Shown here piece after piece: positions 4,911 to 50,720 of a stretch of DNA of 64,000 nt; positions within the stretch are counted from its first letter, which is position 1, and each line of letters opens with the position of its first letter. The notes under the pieces were generated by a model. It ran no database searches and had not been told where the DNA came from. It saw nothing but the letters and a program-made list of their open reading frames with translations. The DNA is taken from IMG/VR virus record IMGVR_UViG_2609460060_000003, positions 1 through 64,000 of that record; one strand, given 5' to 3'. This DNA comes from a virus. Lineage: Duplodnaviria; Heunggongvirae; Uroviricota; Caudoviricetes. A program made the position numbers and the translations under genes.

Positions 4911-5022
4911 TTTTTTTGCCCTTTAGATTGAACTTTTCAGTAGAAAAGAAGTCACTGCGGACAAATGTTTATCTTTTTTGGATTCGTGTTTCAAGTTTTG
5001 CAAATAAAAATCAAGGTATTTT

Positions 5023-5038
5023 TGTGATCAAAATCACA
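5023..5038. promoter_or_regulatory. CRP-like palindrome TGTGA-N6-TCACA in the porin upstream region
   Basis: Exact match to the CRP half-site consensus with 6-bp spacer, about 115 bp upstream of the porin ATG. Confidence 0.3.
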
Positions 5039-5651
5039 AATAATAGCCTTGAAAACCCAATGGACTATTAGAAAAAACTCAATTCACAGAATAAAAATTG
5101 ACAAAATAGATCAAAAAACAATCAAAAATAAGCACAAAAGACAAACAATTAAATTATCACAAAAATAATAACTGTCAAAAATAGATAGCCTGTTAATTAA
5201 CAGGGCTTTAATGGATGTAGACTTGAAATCTACTTAAAAATTAGAATCAAATTAATTACTGCCGATTGGGTATTAAATTGAATCTATATTGTGAGAGTTA
5301 AAGACGATGTGTTTTAGTTATAAATGTTATTCCCTAAAATGGAGCGGTCTCATCGAATCCTGATTAATAACGAGCTAAGCTAATTCATTTTAGTATGTGT
5401 ATATCTTTACCCTCTGAATATGCAATAAAGAAGAGATATTAAACAATATGTAGCTTCAGGATTGACTCTGGAAGAATTAAAAGATCGACTAAAGTGTTCA
5501 ATATGTGGTGAGCGAAACGCAAAAATTAATTTTTTTTGATCTAACATATTAGGTAACGGCTTGCTTCCATAACCTAAAGCAAGCCACTACGCGTTTACTT
5601 TAAGTACACAATTAACATATCAGAACAGATTATTTTTGCACAATCAGGGAG

Positions 5652-12695: not shown

Positions 12696-13550
12696 TGTGC
12701 GCCCAGCATGGGCGCGATCTTGGAGGTGAAAGCCCTCCCGCGAGCTGACCACAGCGAGCGAAATGAAGTGCAACTGCGTGAGGGCGACCGGGCGTGGGGA
12801 GGAAGCACGGAATGAACCCGTGAGCCGATGAACGAGAATCGGATATGAGGCGCGATGGAGCAAGGCGAGCAGGCACATCACTGCGAAGCTTTCGTGGTCA
12901 AGTCGAAGTCGCGCAGATCCGACGGTTGTGCGGGGAAGGATCGCGTTCTTACCTGGGGAGTTCTCGCCTCATGCCTGAAAGGGCAACGTCGTAAGACGGA
13001 GCGAGAAGTCAGCAGAGGCCGTAGTAGTCAGGACTCCGACGAAGGGCCGAACGAGAAGGAAAGCCAGAAGATATGACTCTTGACAGGACATTGCGTCAGA
13101 AGCCGAGGAAGCCCGGTACGGACCCGCATGCCGGGTGGTGTGGCAGGGGCGCAGCCCTTGTGCTCCCCCCTATGCCGATCAAGCAGAACATTGTGCTGGG
13201 CCTCTGACGCAGCTCCTTGATGGTCTTGGCATCGTGCTTAAGTGGATTGGTGTCGTCCCTGATAGGATCATGGAGGCAGAATGAAACTCAAAAATCCGGG
13301 ATAGCACGCAAAACAGGCTGCACAAAAAGCGCAGGTTGCGTAGGAGTGAAATCCCGCTCCCAAAAAATGGTGCAGAAGTTGCGGCAGTGGTCATCCGACG
13401 CACTGGAAAATAACAAACCCGCCGTGACCAGAATCGGAGGCCTGAGGGAGTGACCGAAAAACCGGACAACCCAGGCAGCAAATACCCGCTGGATGAGGCA
13501 TGGTTCCGGCAGATAATACCGAAAACCGCCAGACACACTGGATAATCAGT
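12696..13550 (+). mobile_element. Group II intron-like structured RNA segment (no intact reverse-transcriptase ORF; 3' boundary uncertain)
   Basis: Starts GTGCGCCCAGCATGGGCGCG (group II 5' GUGYG signature); GC-rich and GNRA-rich; CCGTAGTAGTCAGGACTCCGACGAAGGGCC resembles a domain II/III region; only short Arg/Pro-rich ORFs on both strands. Confidence 0.45.
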
Positions 13551-29291: not shown

Positions 29292-29320
29292 TTGACCTTT
29301 TAATCGTTCAGGCTTATAGT
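29292..29320 (+). promoter_or_regulatory. Sigma-70 promoter of the immI (c4-icd-ant) transcript
   Basis: TTGACC, 17-bp spacer, TATAGT. Confidence 0.6.
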
Positions 29321-29439
29321 TTCGCCGTCGTAGCAAATTCTGCGACCGGGTTTAGCAGCCTGAATGATTGTGCGGACAGCCGCAGATATCCGATATTGCG
29401 GTATTTTTGTGTCCGTAAAACCGCGTTACGCCCAAATTA

Positions 29440-29515
29440 TGGTGGGGCGTGATGGGGAGGCTTCGGCCTGCTGGTTTCACAATCGCCAGTCTGCTAACCC
29501 CGTCACGTCCTGCCA
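29440..29515 (+). ncRNA. c4: c4-type antisense repressor RNA (approximate boundaries)
   Basis: Contains CACAATC and CTGCTAA, complementary to the motif GTTTAGCAGC...GATTGTG that occurs upstream (29350-29372) and again over the icd RBS (29519-29556). Confidence 0.5.
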
Positions 29516-29567
29516 CCTGTTTAGCAGCGGGTAGCAGGTTGTTAAACCTGATTGTGAGGCCGTAACT

Positions 29568-32955: not shown

Positions 32956-33078
32956 TACAATCGTTGCGGGTGCTTGAGGCTATCTGCTTCAGGCATTACC
33001 CGAAAAGCAGATAGAAGAAAGCCCCAGATAACATTACGCGTCCTGCAAGACGCTTAACATTAATCTGAGGCAATATCT

Positions 33079-33285
33079 ATGCTTAGCATACGTAGATTAG
33101 CCTCTTACCGACCAAAAGGTCAAGGAGAAGCAGGCTATGAAGCAGCAAAAAGCGATATTAATCGCTCTGATCGTCATCTGTTTAACCGTCATTGTGACGG
33201 CACTGGTAACGAGGAAAGACCTCTGCGAGGTACGAATCCGAACCGGCCAGACGGAGGTCACTGTCTTCACAGCCTACGAATCTGA
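33079..33285 (+). CDS. mok: mok-like overlapping frame of the hok module
   Basis: 68-aa ORF beginning 58 nt upstream of hok and overlapping it in a different frame. Confidence 0.4.
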   Translation: MLSIRRLASYRPKGQGEAGYEAAKSDINRSDRHLFNRHCDGTGNEERPLRGTNPNRPDGGHCLHSLRI

Positions 33286-33929: not shown

Positions 33930-34511
33930 TTACTGGAACGCCCGAACAATATCGGAGCTGTTATATATCGAAGAACCGGTCAACTGGAGGTTGACGGTGT
34001 TTTTCAGGAAATGTCCATTGCTGTCCCTGGGCGCATCGAGATCGAAACTTATGTCCTGGATAGCGACATCAATGATGTTGATCCGGCGACCAATGTTTAG
34101 CGTCACACGCTCCGGGATTCGACCACCAATACTGGCATCTTTAAGTTCCGGGCTAATCATCGCTGACAATGCGGCGATAGCTCCTGAAACCTCCGTGAAT
34201 GGGTCAAACAAAGCGATGAAAGTTACTGGCAGCGTGAAAGTCGGCGGTGTTCCCCCCTCCCAAACCATTAAGCTGTTCCAACGGGCCACCGACGTTGTTT
34301 CAGTACCAACCTGCGCAAAACCACTGAAAGCACCAGCAACAGACCCCATGGACATACCGGTAAACGGCGCTTCCCAATTCTGGGCCATGTTCATTGCTGC
34401 CCCCTGGCTGATATATCCGGTAACCTGGTACTGAGAGTTCGTTAAAGTAACTTTCAGAAATGGCGATACACCGTCAGCCTGGCTGTAAACCCCATAAGGT
34501 ATAGGTGCCAT
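33930..34511 (-). CDS. Structural protein (hypothetical)
   Basis: 193 aa in the structural block. Confidence 0.35.
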   Translation of the reverse strand: MAPIPYGVYSQADGVSPFLKVTLTNSQYQVTGYISQGAAMNMAQNWEAPFTGMSMGSVAGAFSGFAQVGTETTSVARWNSLMVWEGGTPPTFTLPVTFIALFDPFTEVSGAIAALSAMISPELKDASIGGRIPERVTLNIGRRINIIDVAIQDISFDLDAPRDSNGHFLKNTVNLQLTGSSIYNSSDIVRAFQ

Positions 34512-46226: not shown

Positions 46227-47124
46227 GCACTGGAAAAACATTACTATTTATAAACTTTCTCGTGAGGCGGATCTGACCGACTTAGAAGATAAAAAGAAAA
46301 TGATCCTTTTCACGCCATGCGGTAGTCAGGATATGGCCAAGTTCGGTTTTGTATCGCCATTTGGTGATAATTCCGAAGTTATCGCTATGCATGGAAATGG
46401 TTTTATCCTTGTTGAAGCAAAGCGCGAAACAAAAATTCTTCCCCCGCCGGTTATCCAGCGAGCTATTCAAGAAAAAATTGAAAAACTTGAGCAAGAACAA
46501 GCGCGTAAACTGAAGAAAACAGAGAAGGACTCCCTGAAAGACGAAGTTCTACATTCTCTTCTGCCACGGGCTTTTTCAAAGTTTTCTGTTATCCAGGCGA
46601 TCTACGACGGTTCAACTAAACGTATCTATATCAATGCCAGCGCGCGGCAGGCAGAGGATATGCTCGCGCTTATGCGTAAGTCTCTGGGGTCTCTTCCTGT
46701 TGTTCCCCTGAGTGTTGAAAATCCCATTGAATTAACGCTGACCGACTGGGTACGTGATGGTAGTGCTCCACAGGGATTTCAAATGGGGGATGCGGCAGAA
46801 CTTAAGGCAGTGCTTGAGGATGGCGGTATTGCCCGAGTGAAAAAGCAGGATTTGGGAAGCGATGAAATTTCCACACACTTGGAAGCAGGCAAGCTCGTCA
46901 CTAAGTTGGCACTCGACTGGCAGAACCGCATTAAATTTACACTGGACCATAACTTCAGCCTTACCAGCGTCAAATTTGCGGATGAATTGCTTGAGCAGAA
47001 CTCTGATATTGATAGTGAAGATGTTGCGCAGCGACTGGACGCAGATTTCTTCCTGTTGACCAGTGAAATTTCGTGCCTGGTTGATGCTCTGGTAAATGCC
47101 CTTGGTGGAGAGGCTAAGCAGTGA
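46219..47124 (+). CDS. hrdC: RdgC-family recombination-associated protein homologue
   Basis: Strong similarity to E. coli RdgC as recalled ([54 protein letters not shown]); ATG 46219. Confidence 0.85.
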
Positions 47125-49709
47125 AAGAGCTGTGCTATGGATCTGTTTGCAGTGGAATTGAAGCCGCGAGTATTGCCTGGGAACCGTTGGGTATGCGTCC
47201 GGCGTGGTTTGCTGAAATCGAGCCTTTTCCATCTGCCGTTCTTGCGCACCGCTGGCCCCATGTCGCCAACCTTGGCGACATGACAAAACTTGCCAAAAAA
47301 GTCCTGGCTGGGGAAATCGAATCCCCTGATGTGCTCGTCGGGGGAACACCTTGTCAGGCATTCAGTATCGCTGGATTACGTGGTGGGCTTGATGATGAGC
47401 GTGGCGCGCTAACTTTAAAGTATGTGGAGCTTGCAAATGCAATTGACGACAAACGGGCTGAGTCATTTCTCAAACCAGCCGTTATCGTCTGGGAAAATGT
47501 CCCAGGAGTCTTGTCATCGGCAGATAACGCCTTCGGATGTTTCCTTGCCGGATTGGCTGGAGAAGATGCGCCATTTGAACCAGGTGATCGACCTGAATCA
47601 GGAAAAAGTAACGCGTTCTGGCGGTGGGATGGCAAAACCGGTTGCCATGCTCCAAAGTGGCCGCAGTGTGGTTGTATTTATGGACCGCAGCGAAAGGTGG
47701 CCTGGAGAATCCTTGATGCCCAATACTTCGGAGTGGCACAACGACGCCGACGCGTGTTTGTTGTCGCAAGTGCTCGAACAGACCTCGATCCCGCAACGGT
47801 ACTTTTTGAGTTCGAAGGCGTGCGCCGGGATATTGCGCCGAGCAGAGGCGAGGGGAAGGAAGTTGCCGGAAATGTTGGAAATGGCATTAAAAGCGGGAGC
47901 CATTGGGATAACCCTGTAAATCCGCACCCGACACTTAACCAGTCACACAATACTGGCGGGATCGGCGCAAGTAACCAGGAGATTTTTGCGCAGCGCGGAA
48001 GTGGGCTTGTTGGTGCTTATCGAATGGTTGCATTTGGCGAATATGCTGATGATGAGACTGCTTCTACTGTCAAGGCCAGAGATTTTAAAGATGCAACCGA
48101 TTTAGCAGTTTTCAGTAGTACTGGTGCTGGTATTTGGCGTGAAGGTGCAGGCACTCTTCGTGCCAGATCACAAGAAAGTCACGAACATCTGGCAGTGATG
48201 GCTATTCATGGAACACAAGATCCTGATGTTAATTGTGAATTGGCACATACTATTGGTCGTAACCATGGTCAAGAAAATGCAGTCGTAGCTTTTTCCTGCA
48301 AAGATTATGGACAAGATGTTTCTATTGAATGTTCTCCGACTTTACGATCTGGTAATGCTGTTAATAGCAATCCAAATGCAGGATGCCCACCAGCTGTTGC
48401 GTATTCGCTACAACATGCACAAATTGGGCGAAAAGATGATGCTGGACCGCAGGGTAAAGGGTGGCAAAAAGAGATAAGTTTTACTCTTGATTCCCGCGCT
48501 ACAGCTGACGCCGTTGCGTTATCTTTTGGGGGGCAGAAAAGTATTGAAAAAGGCAATTTAGGTGAGAATGGTTACTTACCTCATATGATGAGTGTTCGCC
48601 GTCTTACCCCTGTTGAATGTGAAAGGCTGCAAGGTTTTCCTGATGGGCATACGTTGATCCCTACGGAAAAGCGTAAAAAAGTTTCTTCAGATGAACTGGC
48701 ATACCTTCGCAATAACTATCCTGATTTAAGTGAAGAAGAGGCCGCGATGCTTGCAGCTGACGGACCGCGTTACAAAGCGATCGGCAATAGTATGGCGATA
48801 CCAGTAATGCGCTGGATTGGCGATCGGATTGCCAAGGCTGCATGTCGGCAGAAGGAAGGGAGTGAAACAAAAGAGCGAAAAGTTAAACCAGCGGCAGAAT
48901 TCGAACGGTCCATATTCAAATGGGCTGGTGGAAAATTTGGTGTTCTGGAACAAATCTTTCGCTATTTGCCAGAAGGGAAGCGCCTGATTGAACCTTTCGT
49001 TGGTGGCGGAGCTGTCTTCATGAATGCCGGATACCAGGAAAATCTGCTAAATGATGTGAATGCTGACCTGATTAACTTTTACAAGACTTTGCAACGTGAG
49101 GAACGTTCACTTATCACTCTGGCGCATCGGTTTTTCCAGGACTACAACACACAGGAAGGATACCTGGCAGTACGGAGTGCGTTTAACAAACAAGTCTATG
49201 ATGATTTACATCGCGCAGCGGCGTTTTTGTTCCTGAACCGACATTGTTTTAACGGATTGACGCGTTACAACCAGGCCGGTGAGTTCAATGTCGGTTATGG
49301 GAAGTATAAAACTCCGTATTTCCCATTACAGGAGATGGAAGCCTTCCTCGGTGCGGAAGGGCGGTCTGAGTTTGTATGCGGTGATTTTGCAGCGGTGATT
49401 GAAGCTGCCGGAGAAGGTGATGTCATCTTTTGCGATCCGCCGTATGAACCGCTTCCAAATACAGAGGGATTCACGAACTATTCCGGTCATGACTTTAAGT
49501 TTGAAGAGCAAAAACGCCTGGTGTCTCTGTTGACGGATGCTCATCGTCGAGGTGCAAAGGTTCTCATTACTAACAGTGGCGCGCCAAACATCAGAGAGCT
49601 TTATCATGACAGTGGCTTCAGAGTGGAACATCTTTTTGCCAGACGTTCTGTGTCTTGTAAGGGGGACACTCGAGGTGTAGCTCATGACGTTTTGGGTATA
49701 TTGCTCTAA
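47121..49709 (+). CDS. dmt: Bifunctional DNA methyltransferase (C5-cytosine MTase-like N-terminal domain with PCQ motif; Dam-like N6-adenine MTase C-terminal domain with DPPY motif)
   Basis: [12 protein letters not shown] (m5C motif IV) in the N-terminal part; WAGGKFGVL...DPPYEPL in the C-terminal part. Confidence 0.85.
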
Positions 49710-49729
49710 TAAATTTATTAGTGTAATAT
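49700..49729 (+). promoter_or_regulatory. Perfect C1 operator overlapping a promoter (TTGCTC-N17-TAATAT)
   Basis: ATTGCTCTAATAAATTT exact consensus at 49700-49716, overlapping the dmt stop. Confidence 0.6.
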
Positions 49730-49890
49730 CGCCTCAATGAATCGTGATTTATAGAGCGATTTAGCTGTTAGCCGCGACAGGCGCGGCGGTAAGCATGGCT
49801 GGGCCTAGTCCTCCCAGACAAACCACCGAGTTGCCAGGTTGACCATGCGCCTAAGTGGCAACGCCGAAGTGCGTTACGAGCTTCCAGTTT

Positions 49891-49917
49891 GCCCATCTTC
49901 GGGTGGGCGTTTTTTTC
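49891..49917 (+). terminator. Intrinsic terminator about 180 nt downstream of the operator-promoter
   Basis: GCCCATC-TTCG-GGTGGGC followed by TTTTTTT. Confidence 0.65.
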
Positions 49918-50382
49918 AGGGTTTTCGTCATGGTTAGCGACTTTGCGGCGGTTTAGAAACTGACCATTAAAGTAAATGCAAACGATGATCTGATGATGGT
50001 AGCGGCCTAAGAAACCAGATGCCACGGGGTATGAGTCGTCCCCCGTCAAAAAAATCGACCGCAGAGTGTCCCCGTCTGTGTATTAGGGAACGGGGAGGCA
50101 CAACAGGTAAGGGCGCTGGTGTGATTAACCAGATGAACGAGAAGGGGCCATCTGTTGGTCAGCGTCCTTTCCTGTTGCGTTTTCTTTTCAGCGTAACAGC
50201 GGTGCTTAACAGCACTTTGGGTACAGTTCCACGAATTTACGGGTATATCCCGTCATGCTGAAGGCGCTAATCACGCTGGAAGCCAGGGTTGTGCATCCCC
50301 TGTTACCGAATTGCAGCCAGGGCGCGGTGCGCCGAAAAGCATACGGAGGTGGAAGCCCTCGCCGGAGACGTACCCGGCAAGT

Positions 50383-50457
50383 GATGGTGTAGCTCAGCGG
50401 TAGAGCAGTTGGCTGTTAACCAACTGGTCGGTGGTTCGAATCCACCCACCATCGCCA
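50383..50457 (+). tRNA. tRNA-Asn (anticodon GUU)
   Basis: Cloverleaf folded by hand: acceptor GATGGTG/CACCATC, D-arm GCTC-AGCGGTA-GAGC, anticodon loop CTGTTAA, T-arm GGTGG-TTCGAAT-CCACC, encoded CCA. Confidence 0.85.
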
Positions 50458-50462
50458 CTTTA

Positions 50463-50549
50463 GGGGAGTTAGTCCGTAGGGGTAGCGGGGTAGACTGTAA
50501 ATCTACTGTCATTGCGACTCGGGTGGTTCGACTCCATCACTCCCCACCA
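50463..50549 (+). tRNA. tRNA-Tyr (anticodon GUA), class II with long variable arm
   Basis: Perfect 7-bp acceptor stem GGGGAGT/ACTCCCC, anticodon stem-loop GTAGA-CTGTAAA-TCTAC, variable-arm hairpin, T-loop TTCGACT, encoded CCA. Confidence 0.7.
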
Positions 50550-50553
50550 AATT

Positions 50554-50629
50554 GCCGGTTTAGCTCAGTTGGTAGAGCGCCTGCCTTGTAAGCAGGATGT
50601 CAGCGGTTCGAGTCCGTTAACCGGCACCA
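50554..50629 (+). tRNA. tRNA-Thr (anticodon UGU)
   Basis: Acceptor GCCGGTT/AACCGGC, D-arm GCTC-AGTTGGTA-GAGC, anticodon loop CTTGTAA, T-loop TTCGAGT, encoded CCA. Confidence 0.85.
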
Positions 50630-50720
50630 ACACAACAGGTAAGGGTATTTTGCGACGTCGGAGATCGCCGTGCTTGGCAGAGGGTTCGAATCCCTACGAA
50701 GTACCCTTACCGTTGTGATG
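50630..50720 (+). other. tRNA-like / long-hairpin element (non-canonical; contains a T-arm-like GAGGGTTCGAATCCCT)
   Basis: CACAACAGGTAAGGGTA pairs with TACCCTTACCGTTGTG about 55 nt downstream; no canonical cloverleaf could be folded. Confidence 0.3.

Follow-up and report, generated by a model that had tools for sequence, protein, structure and literature searches.

A structured RNA domain shared with the DicF precursor behind the C1-controlled ban promoter of a P1-like phage

At the head of the ban operon of P1-type phage-plasmids, between the end of dmt and a cluster of transfer RNA (tRNA) genes, lies a short interval that is the subject of this report. It was analysed in the virus record IMGVR_UViG_2609460060_000003, positions 1 to 64,000 of which form the window (64,000 nucleotides, nt). 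Over 49400-50700, the sequence shares about 98% identity with P1 and related phages, which identifies the window as that of a P1-like phage. In the P1 record (NC_005856), the matching positions carry the end of dmt, the operator pair Obanab (formerly Op72a and Op72b), the promoters P1ban and P2ban, and a feature labelled 'dicF-like region'; the same operator pair is annotated in the P7 record. An earlier note on this DNA had described an operator-controlled promoter followed by a leader of about 180 nt and an intrinsic terminator, and as first stated this finding is mostly known, since the P1 record annotates the operators and the promoter (and the P7 record the operator pair) and also bears the label 'dicF-like'. 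New here are the structure of an RNA domain that the interval shares with the precursor of the small RNA DicF, the different 3' module that follows this domain in P1, and the adjoining module that resembles the tag of transfer-messenger RNA (tmRNA). DicF, among the oldest known bacterial small RNAs, thus sits behind a large, conserved and covarying RNA domain, and in P1-type phage-plasmids it is this domain, joined to another 3' module, that opens the ban operon. The existence of a stable 190-nt form of DicF and the question of how P1 passes a strong terminator to express ban thereby become one joint question about the helices of this domain.

Operators, promoter and terminator between dmt and the tRNA genes

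The dmt stop codon (TAA, 49707-49709), which ends a long plus-strand open reading frame (ORF; 47121-49709), lies inside the operator Op72a (Table 1). The perfect C1 operator and the overlapping TTGCTC-N17-TAATAT promoter that the earlier note had placed at this stop codon were both recovered and correspond to Op72ab and P1ban of the P1 record; a second, inverted operator had been overlooked. Together, Op72a and Op72b constitute a divalent operator that overlaps the -35 and -10 elements of a sigma-70 promoter, the hexamers of which are identical to the P1 annotation. When up to three mismatches were allowed, nine operator sites were found in the window as compared to 0.24 expected, and none of 100 shuffles reached nine, so that a chance match can be discounted. 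P1ban was not reported by a generic promoter scan because only 8 of its 12 consensus positions match. Judging from the position of the -10 element, transcription would start near 49736. The proposed control by the repressor agrees with the annotation of the P1 record and with rt-qPCR (quantitative reverse-transcription PCR) measurements, according to which ban is C1-controlled and induced upon lytic induction, albeit more weakly than ref, ssb, dmt, and kilA (PMC4713147). Further members of the same operon are the tci genes, which the P1 record annotates by homology as mediating tellurite or colicin resistance or inhibition of cell division.

Table 1. Features of the interval downstream of dmt (window positions; P1 record positions refer to sequence L001)
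Feature	Position	Strand	Basis or remark
C1 operator Op72a (Obana), ATTGCTCTAATAAATTT	49700-49716	+	17-mer, 0 mismatches; P1 record L001 3801-3817
C1 operator Op72b (Obanb), inverted	49711-49727	-	2 mismatches, overlaps Op72a; P1 record L001 3812-3828
Promoter P1ban, -35 TTGCTC, 17-base spacer, -10 TAATAT	49701-49706 and 49724-49729	+	sequence and P1 record
Promoter P2ban, -35 and -10	49684-49689 and 49710-49715		predicted in P1 record
Conserved structured 5' domain, four-way junction and pseudoknot	49766-49873	+	blastn, covariation, covariance model
Domain hairpin	49771-49776/49782-49787	+	
Domain pseudoknot, GCAUGG with CCAUGC	49793-49798/49843-49848	+	
Domain variable hairpin	49799-49803/49813-49817	+	
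Domain 9-base-pair hairpin	49828-49836/49856-49864	+	
P1 3' trailer, GAAGUGCGUUACGAGCUUCCAGUU	49865-49889	+	position of DicF seed region; specific to P1-type copies
Intrinsic terminator	49890-49916	+	consensus scan and fold; conserved in P1, P7, D6
tmRNA-tag-like module	49920-50096	+	directly after terminator; pseudoknot-like hairpins 3' of tag frame

The strong terminator that had been noted about 180 nt downstream is likewise present. Its hairpin (GCCCATC-TTCG-GGTGGGC, 49891-49908) is followed by a single G and seven T (49910-49916), and the G+C-rich stem of 7 base pairs (bp; 8 if an outer G-U pair is included) is capped by a UUCG loop and has a predicted stability of -12.8 kcal/mol. Its T run is one T longer than that of the P1 record. 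From a start near 49736 to the last T at 49916, the RNA would measure about 181 nt. The block that begins with the terminator is common to phage D6, the sequence of which differs upstream. As to coding capacity, the earlier statement that the interval holds only a 4-codon ORF is approximately right: the sole ATG-initiated ORF (49738-49755, MNRDL*) comprises five sense codons, and longer ORFs exist if TTG and GTG starts are admitted, namely ORFs of 24-33 amino acids on the plus strand and a TTG-initiated ORF of 93 amino acids on the minus strand. The three longest ORFs overlapping the interval gave no match in Pfam.

A conserved RNA domain in front of DicF and in the ban leader

Comparison of 49730-49925 with complete Escherichia coli genomes by blastn returned about 490 full-length matches of 80-100% identity, which is consistent with P1-like plasmids (505 places were plasmid-borne). 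A shorter part, 49772-49866, is about 77% identical to a segment of lambdoid prophages that occurs in 4242 of 5426 E. coli genomes, mostly on the chromosome. Both a K-12 derivative and phage mEp460 have this segment in the dicBF operon, between ydfC and dicB; in Qin, it stops 24 nt upstream of DicF. What P1 shares with this locus is therefore the sequence in front of DicF and not the 53-nt DicF itself. In line with this, the Rfam model of DicF (RF00039, gathering score 48 bits) scores 76.7 bits on Qin and mEp460 (DicF at L004 3122-3173 of the dicBF locus) and 58.9 bits on a further type (L028), and neither 49600-50450 nor 49736-49925 of the window contains a match up to an expectation value (E) of 10. 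The 'dicF-like region' of the P1 record (68791-68892, about 49824-49925 of the window) covers only the 3' half of the conserved segment plus the terminator and is annotated there without mention of a structure.

Pattern scans recovered copies of the segment, hereafter the domain, from 120 viral contigs and from 17 stretches of a collection with one genome per species, which amount to 73 distinct versions. The 17 stretches stem from Escherichia, Shigella, Citrobacter, Trabulsiella, Erwinia, and Izhakiella; three hits in gut metagenome-assembled genomes of other phyla look like contamination. Four helices are proposed, that is, a closing stem GUUGUGG/CCACAAC, a hairpin CCGCG/CGCGG, a variable hairpin, and a 9-bp hairpin with a 19-nt loop, and a fifth results from a pseudoknot of (U/C)AUGG with CCAU(A/G) inside this loop. 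In an alignment of 30 representatives, 93.8% of the cells hold standard pairs, as compared to 33-55% when the 3' partners are slid along the sequence, and 12 pairs are changed on both sides, as compared to 6.1 ± 1.3 in shuffles; none of 500 shuffles reached the observed values for pairing and covariation. In Izhakiella, for example, three compensatory changes in the 9-bp hairpin convert GGGUUGUCA/UGACAACCC into GGGUAACCA/UGGUUACCC. The single pseudoknot pair that was free to vary is U-A, C-G, or U-G. A covariance model of the domain (R1) yields 102 bits at 49756-49889 of the window and 131 bits in Salmonella phage F1055. Minimum free energy folds of single sequences (z about -1.7) did not recover the comparative structure. 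The domain matches no Rfam family, and no description of it was found in the literature, which also returned nothing relevant on dicF or the ban operon in P1 or on a pseudoknot in DicF.

The P1-type copies, of which there are 14 distinct versions, display the same behaviour on a smaller scale. Their pseudoknots read GCAUGG/CCAUGC, GUAUGG/CCAUAC, or GUAUGG/CCAUGC, and the mismatched fourth combination never occurs; in the variable hairpin, a U-A pair in P1 is replaced by G-C in P7. These compensatory differences between P1-type and P7-type copies argue for selection on the RNA fold within the P1 lineage. What the earlier note took to be a plain leader of about 180 nt is thus a conserved, covarying structured RNA, which the P1 record itself flags as 'dicF-like'.

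Two observations concern the limits of the domain family. In a P7-type copy (L152 4655-4814), the loop of the variable hairpin is enlarged by an insert of 26 nt, pointing to a tolerance for large insertions. Phage D6 (L147) contains weak matches to the domain model at 2181-2301 and 4976-5111, in which only the outer stem and its flanks (UGUUGYGGUAAU ... GGAGGCACCNCCGCYRCAAC) are common and the interiors differ, which hints at a larger family whose members have this closing stem in common.

In all collected copies, the domain is succeeded by a short segment with a hairpin and a T run at its end, none lacking the latter. These 3' modules fall into 16 clusters of 39 to 133 nt, and among them Rfam recognizes only the Qin/mEp460 and L028 types, both as DicF, the others matching nothing. 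The P1 module consists of GAAGUGCGUUACGAGCUUCCAGUU and the UUCG-capped hairpin and is devoid of the open hairpin loop of DicF. By sequence, the P1 RNA is accordingly a different 3' module on the same 5' domain and not DicF, a classification that rests on the absence of an RF00039 match and on the UUCG cap.

DicF was shown to exist as a 53-nt and a 190-nt species, with the 5' end of the short form generated by RNase E and that of the long form by RNase III (PMC10448788, PMC5069750). When 190 nt are counted back from the 3' end of DicF, the resulting 5' end falls at most about 6 nt from the closing stem, the first helix of the domain, and the 190-nt species hence corresponds to the conserved segment plus DicF. 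The predicted P1 RNA (about 49736 to 49916, 181 nt) has the same layout. Both possess the homologous 5' domain, with about 77% identity and compensatory changes, and in both the domain is succeeded by a short linker, a terminator-ended module, and distal genes that are reached (in P1 presumably) via read-through. At the dicF locus, a terminated ydfABC-dicF transcript and a transcript reading through the DicF terminator were both observed (PMC10448788). They differ in that the P1 3' module is unrelated in sequence and has no RF00039 match, that the P1 unit begins about 30 nt after a repressor-controlled promoter of its own, and that P1 lacks the flanking duplex sequences for RNase III. The lambdoid units are bracketed by complementary flanks, identified by eye as GUGCGCU/AGCGCAC in the Qin type and UGCUCU/AGAGCA in others, which fits the RNase III cuts reported on both sides. 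A boxA-like reading of TGCTCTTT upstream of lambdoid copies was considered and rejected, as this sequence more plausibly represents one arm of the flanking duplex, the other arm being AGAGCA on the 3' side of the module. By homology, the interval is thus what corresponds in P1 to the precursor unit of DicF (190 nt), which supports the small-RNA reading that had been one of two options in the earlier note.

Possible functions of the P1 unit

The account that we favour, with a probability of roughly 60%, is that the site comprises the C1-repressed promoter of the ban operon and a terminated RNA of about 181 nt of the DicF precursor type, with partial read-through feeding the operon. In a lysogen, C1 bound to the divalent operator (49700-49727) would occlude both promoter elements. 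Upon derepression by infection or induction, RNA polymerase would start near 49736 and would first produce the conserved unit, composed of the pseudoknotted four-way-junction domain, a short lineage-specific 3' trailer, and the strong terminator. Most transcripts would probably stop at the terminator and give rise to a stable structured RNA, and a remaining fraction would continue into the tmRNA-tag-like module, further hairpins, three tRNA genes, tciABC, tRNA-Ile, and ban. The terminator would in this way divide the promoter output between a small RNA and the operon. Accumulation of the 181-nt RNA, partial read-through, and any trans-acting role are things that we infer; predominant termination with some read-through would fit the strength of the terminator, the two transcript classes at the DicF terminator, and the comparatively weak induction of ban.

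Several points weigh against this account. The start site, the termination efficiency, and the stability of the P1 RNA enter it as presumed quantities throughout. Transcripts from the upstream promoter Pdmt could cross the region, in which case the 5' end of the RNA need not coincide with 49736. A seed for pairing in trans is not evident, because P1-type copies have only a short trailer, part of which is sequestered, and because a closed UUCG forms the loop of the terminator. The closing stem of P1-type copies, likely yet unproven, receives no support from the two variants seen, since each of them breaks a pair. Lastly, the search patterns fixed the core of the pseudoknot along with the greater part of the 19-nt loop that caps the 9-bp hairpin, and the invariance of these parts for this reason proves nothing.

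What the domain itself may do is suggested by its resemblance to tRNA. In lambdoid copies, the four helices meet in a cloverleaf-like junction with GUUGUGG/CCACAAC as the closing stem, and the last hairpin directly abuts the 3' strand of this stem. In a phage array (L202), the very same GUUGUGG/CCACAAC forms the acceptor stem of a gene that resembles a tRNA and possesses canonical D and T arms. Searches for tRNA did not detect the domain, which has no RF00005 match up to E 10 and is passed over by ARAGORN in favour of the four downstream tRNAs only; the tRNA-like gene of L202 with the shared stem is not called as a tRNA either. A kinship of domain and tRNA would thus follow from the topology and the shared stem.

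Small RNAs can derive from the 3' external transcribed spacers (3'ETS) of tRNA transcripts, an example being 3'ETS-leuZ of E. coli, where RNase E frees an Hfq-binding trailer that has an intrinsic terminator at its end. DicF would fit such a scheme of a tRNA-type element with a terminator-ended trailer, from which it departs in that the domain has no match to tRNA models and features a 19-nt loop, a pseudoknot, and long junctions. Our preferred guess, by analogy, is that the domain is a tRNA-derived platform for folding and processing, from which the downstream terminator-ended piece may be released, or by which it may be stabilised, as a small RNA. In its widest form, this idea holds that the domain represents an undescribed class of tRNA-derived phage RNAs, a portable platform for interchangeable small-RNA modules with DicF as one of them, and that the ban leader (49736-50382) is an array of such RNAs; to this we would assign only about a one-in-four standing, that is, it is a tentative proposal. 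If it were true, the domain might set the processing or stability of the modules or the read-through of their terminators, and the tmRNA-tag-like module, as part of the array at 49736-50382, could divert ribosome rescue or take advantage of it at an early stage of lytic growth.

A simpler scenario, which we regard as rather improbable, is that of a passive attenuator or insulator: the terminator would merely limit expression of the ban operon, and the domain would be a functionless relic of recombination with lambdoid prophages. In its favour are the presence of a strong terminator ahead of the operon, the induction of ban being lower than that of other C1-controlled genes, and the mosaic boundaries of the modules: D6 shares nothing upstream of the terminator, and L236 combines P1-type with lambdoid parts. 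A relic is, however, difficult to reconcile with the retention of the domain in the approximately 490 P1-like E. coli plasmids, and with the compensatory nature of the changes between P1-type and P7-type copies (C-G versus U-A in the pseudoknot, U-A versus G-C in the hairpin).

Somewhat less plausible again is antitermination in cis, with the nascent domain either modifying RNA polymerase in the manner of the put RNAs of phage HK022 or tuning terminator read-through for dicB and ban. The domain always lies directly upstream of an intrinsic terminator in operons whose distal genes need to be expressed, the combination of a conserved domain with a variable terminator module is reminiscent of an aptamer and its expression platform, and a mechanism based on RNA only would be portable between lambdoid phages and P1. 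With put RNAs, the likeness amounts to a possible functional analogy, namely that of a folded nascent RNA that precedes terminators in an early operon of a phage: put, of about 70 nt, consists of two stem-loops arranged in a V and has no pseudoknot (PMC9378689), the putL-like element of HK639 (34187-34312, 126 nt) is unrelated to the domain in sequence, and the R1 covariance model finds nothing in HK022 or at the HK639 site. An antiterminator of the riboswitch type was sought in all 16 module types, three of which were mis-parsed at early T runs, and the duplexes between terminator arm and domain gave z values of -1.8 to +1.6 without a trend. The arms are therefore no more complementary to the domain than shuffles are, which argues against a conserved antiterminator. 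It also speaks against a purely nascent role that the domain persists together with DicF in the stable 190-nt species. For the other option of the earlier note, an attenuator gating the tRNA, tci, and ban genes, this means that it is plausible only as passive partial termination, given the lack of antiterminator pairing across the 16 module types.

It is most doubtful that the P1 RNA is a true DicF orthologue that blocks cell division by pairing with ftsZ mRNA. Such a role is invited by the label in the P1 record, by the genomic layout that parallels dicF, and by the tci genes of the same operon with their homology-based link to cell division; yet RF00039, which reaches 76.7 bits on Qin, finds nothing in 49736-49925, and P1 has a closed UUCG hairpin where DicF carries its ftsZ-pairing 3' part (PMC5069750). 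Duplexes of the P1 module with the ftsZ start region were no better than those of shuffles (fractions 0.93 and 0.76), in a crude test in which the DicF control was itself weak (0.18). That the interval codes for protein, for instance through the 93-amino-acid minus-strand ORF at 49768-50049, is scarcely credible: ORFs occur on both strands and the records of phages JL22 and SJ46 both show a 'hypothetical protein' where the match lies, but Pfam returns nothing, the substitutions compensate for one another in RNA helices, indels such as the 26-nt insertion of L152 occur in a hairpin loop, and the P1 and P7 reference records list no gene here.

The tmRNA-tag-like module and minor observations

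Directly after the terminator follows the tmRNA-tag-like module. Its tag frame (49978-50010) is preceded by UAAAU, has no start codon, and comprises ten codons and a stop (GCA AAC GAT GAT CTG ATG ATG GTA GCG GCC TAA, ANDDLMMVAA*). The stretch 49920-50010 matches the Rfam model of permuted tmRNA weakly (E 0.009), and four diverse phages gave hits with the same model at E 0.0008 to 0.07, none of which reached the gathering score. With 70-88% identity by blastn, the tag stretch recurs in 293 phage records of unrelated groups, including large Ackermannviridae-type, N4/G7C-like, and T1-like phages, and many of these matches stop at the TAA. Among 130 fetched copies, the frame invariably has ten codons and encodes 18 peptide variants, nearly all of the form AN(D/E)x...xA and ending in AA or VA (in one case AP), for example, ANDDVVLMAA, ANEEMYLAVA, ANDEQFLAVA, and ANDNEFKVAA. 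The pseudoknot downstream of the tag covaries (GUCG/CGAC versus CCGA/UCGG). A tRNA-like domain was not found in the module; ARAGORN reports a tmRNA only at 80% thresholds, at which it also reports a decoy on the opposite strand. Two candidates were dismissed, namely a proposed acceptor pairing of the module, which is not conserved in other phages, and a hit of RF00023 in Bp4, which covers only the T-arm of a neighbouring tRNA. If the module is functional, phages would interfere with trans-translation or make use of it.

In T1-like contigs, tag modules are found in arrays upstream of tRNA genes, these arrays being bounded by alternating inverted repeats, TGCTCTTTCCGTTGTGG and CCACAACAGGTAAGAGCA. 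In T1-like and other phage contigs (L156, L157, L158, L168, and others), such repeats flank varied inserts, of which the tag module and genes resembling tRNAs are examples. At 50092-50188 of the window, the long hairpin CACAACAGGUAAGGGCGCUGG...UCAGCGUCCUUUCCUGUUGCG represents one such repeat pair and shows a compensatory change with respect to D6.

Farther downstream, the window has one tRNA more than the P1 record. An 87-nt tRNA with the anticodon GTA and a long variable arm (50463-50549, called Tyr) is located between tRNA-Asn and tRNA-Thr; it is absent from the P1 and P7 reference records and present in phage vB_EcoM-Ro157c2YLVW. The tRNA-Ile (52070-52145) is called Met-CAT by ARAGORN. Between tRNA-Ile and ban, the non-coding sequence TTTTCTGGTGA (52348-52358) equals the first 11 bases of the DicF region, which could be due to chance (about 0.03 such matches are expected per window).

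Outside the ban region, Rfam detected domains D1-D4 of a group II intron at 12778-13047 (96.9 and 46.8 bits), which points to an inserted group II intron. At 29314-29520 and 32968-33142, it further detected the c4-a1b1 targets together with the C4 antisense RNA, as well as the sok antitoxin RNA, all above their gathering scores and all belonging to families that are also present in related phage loci.

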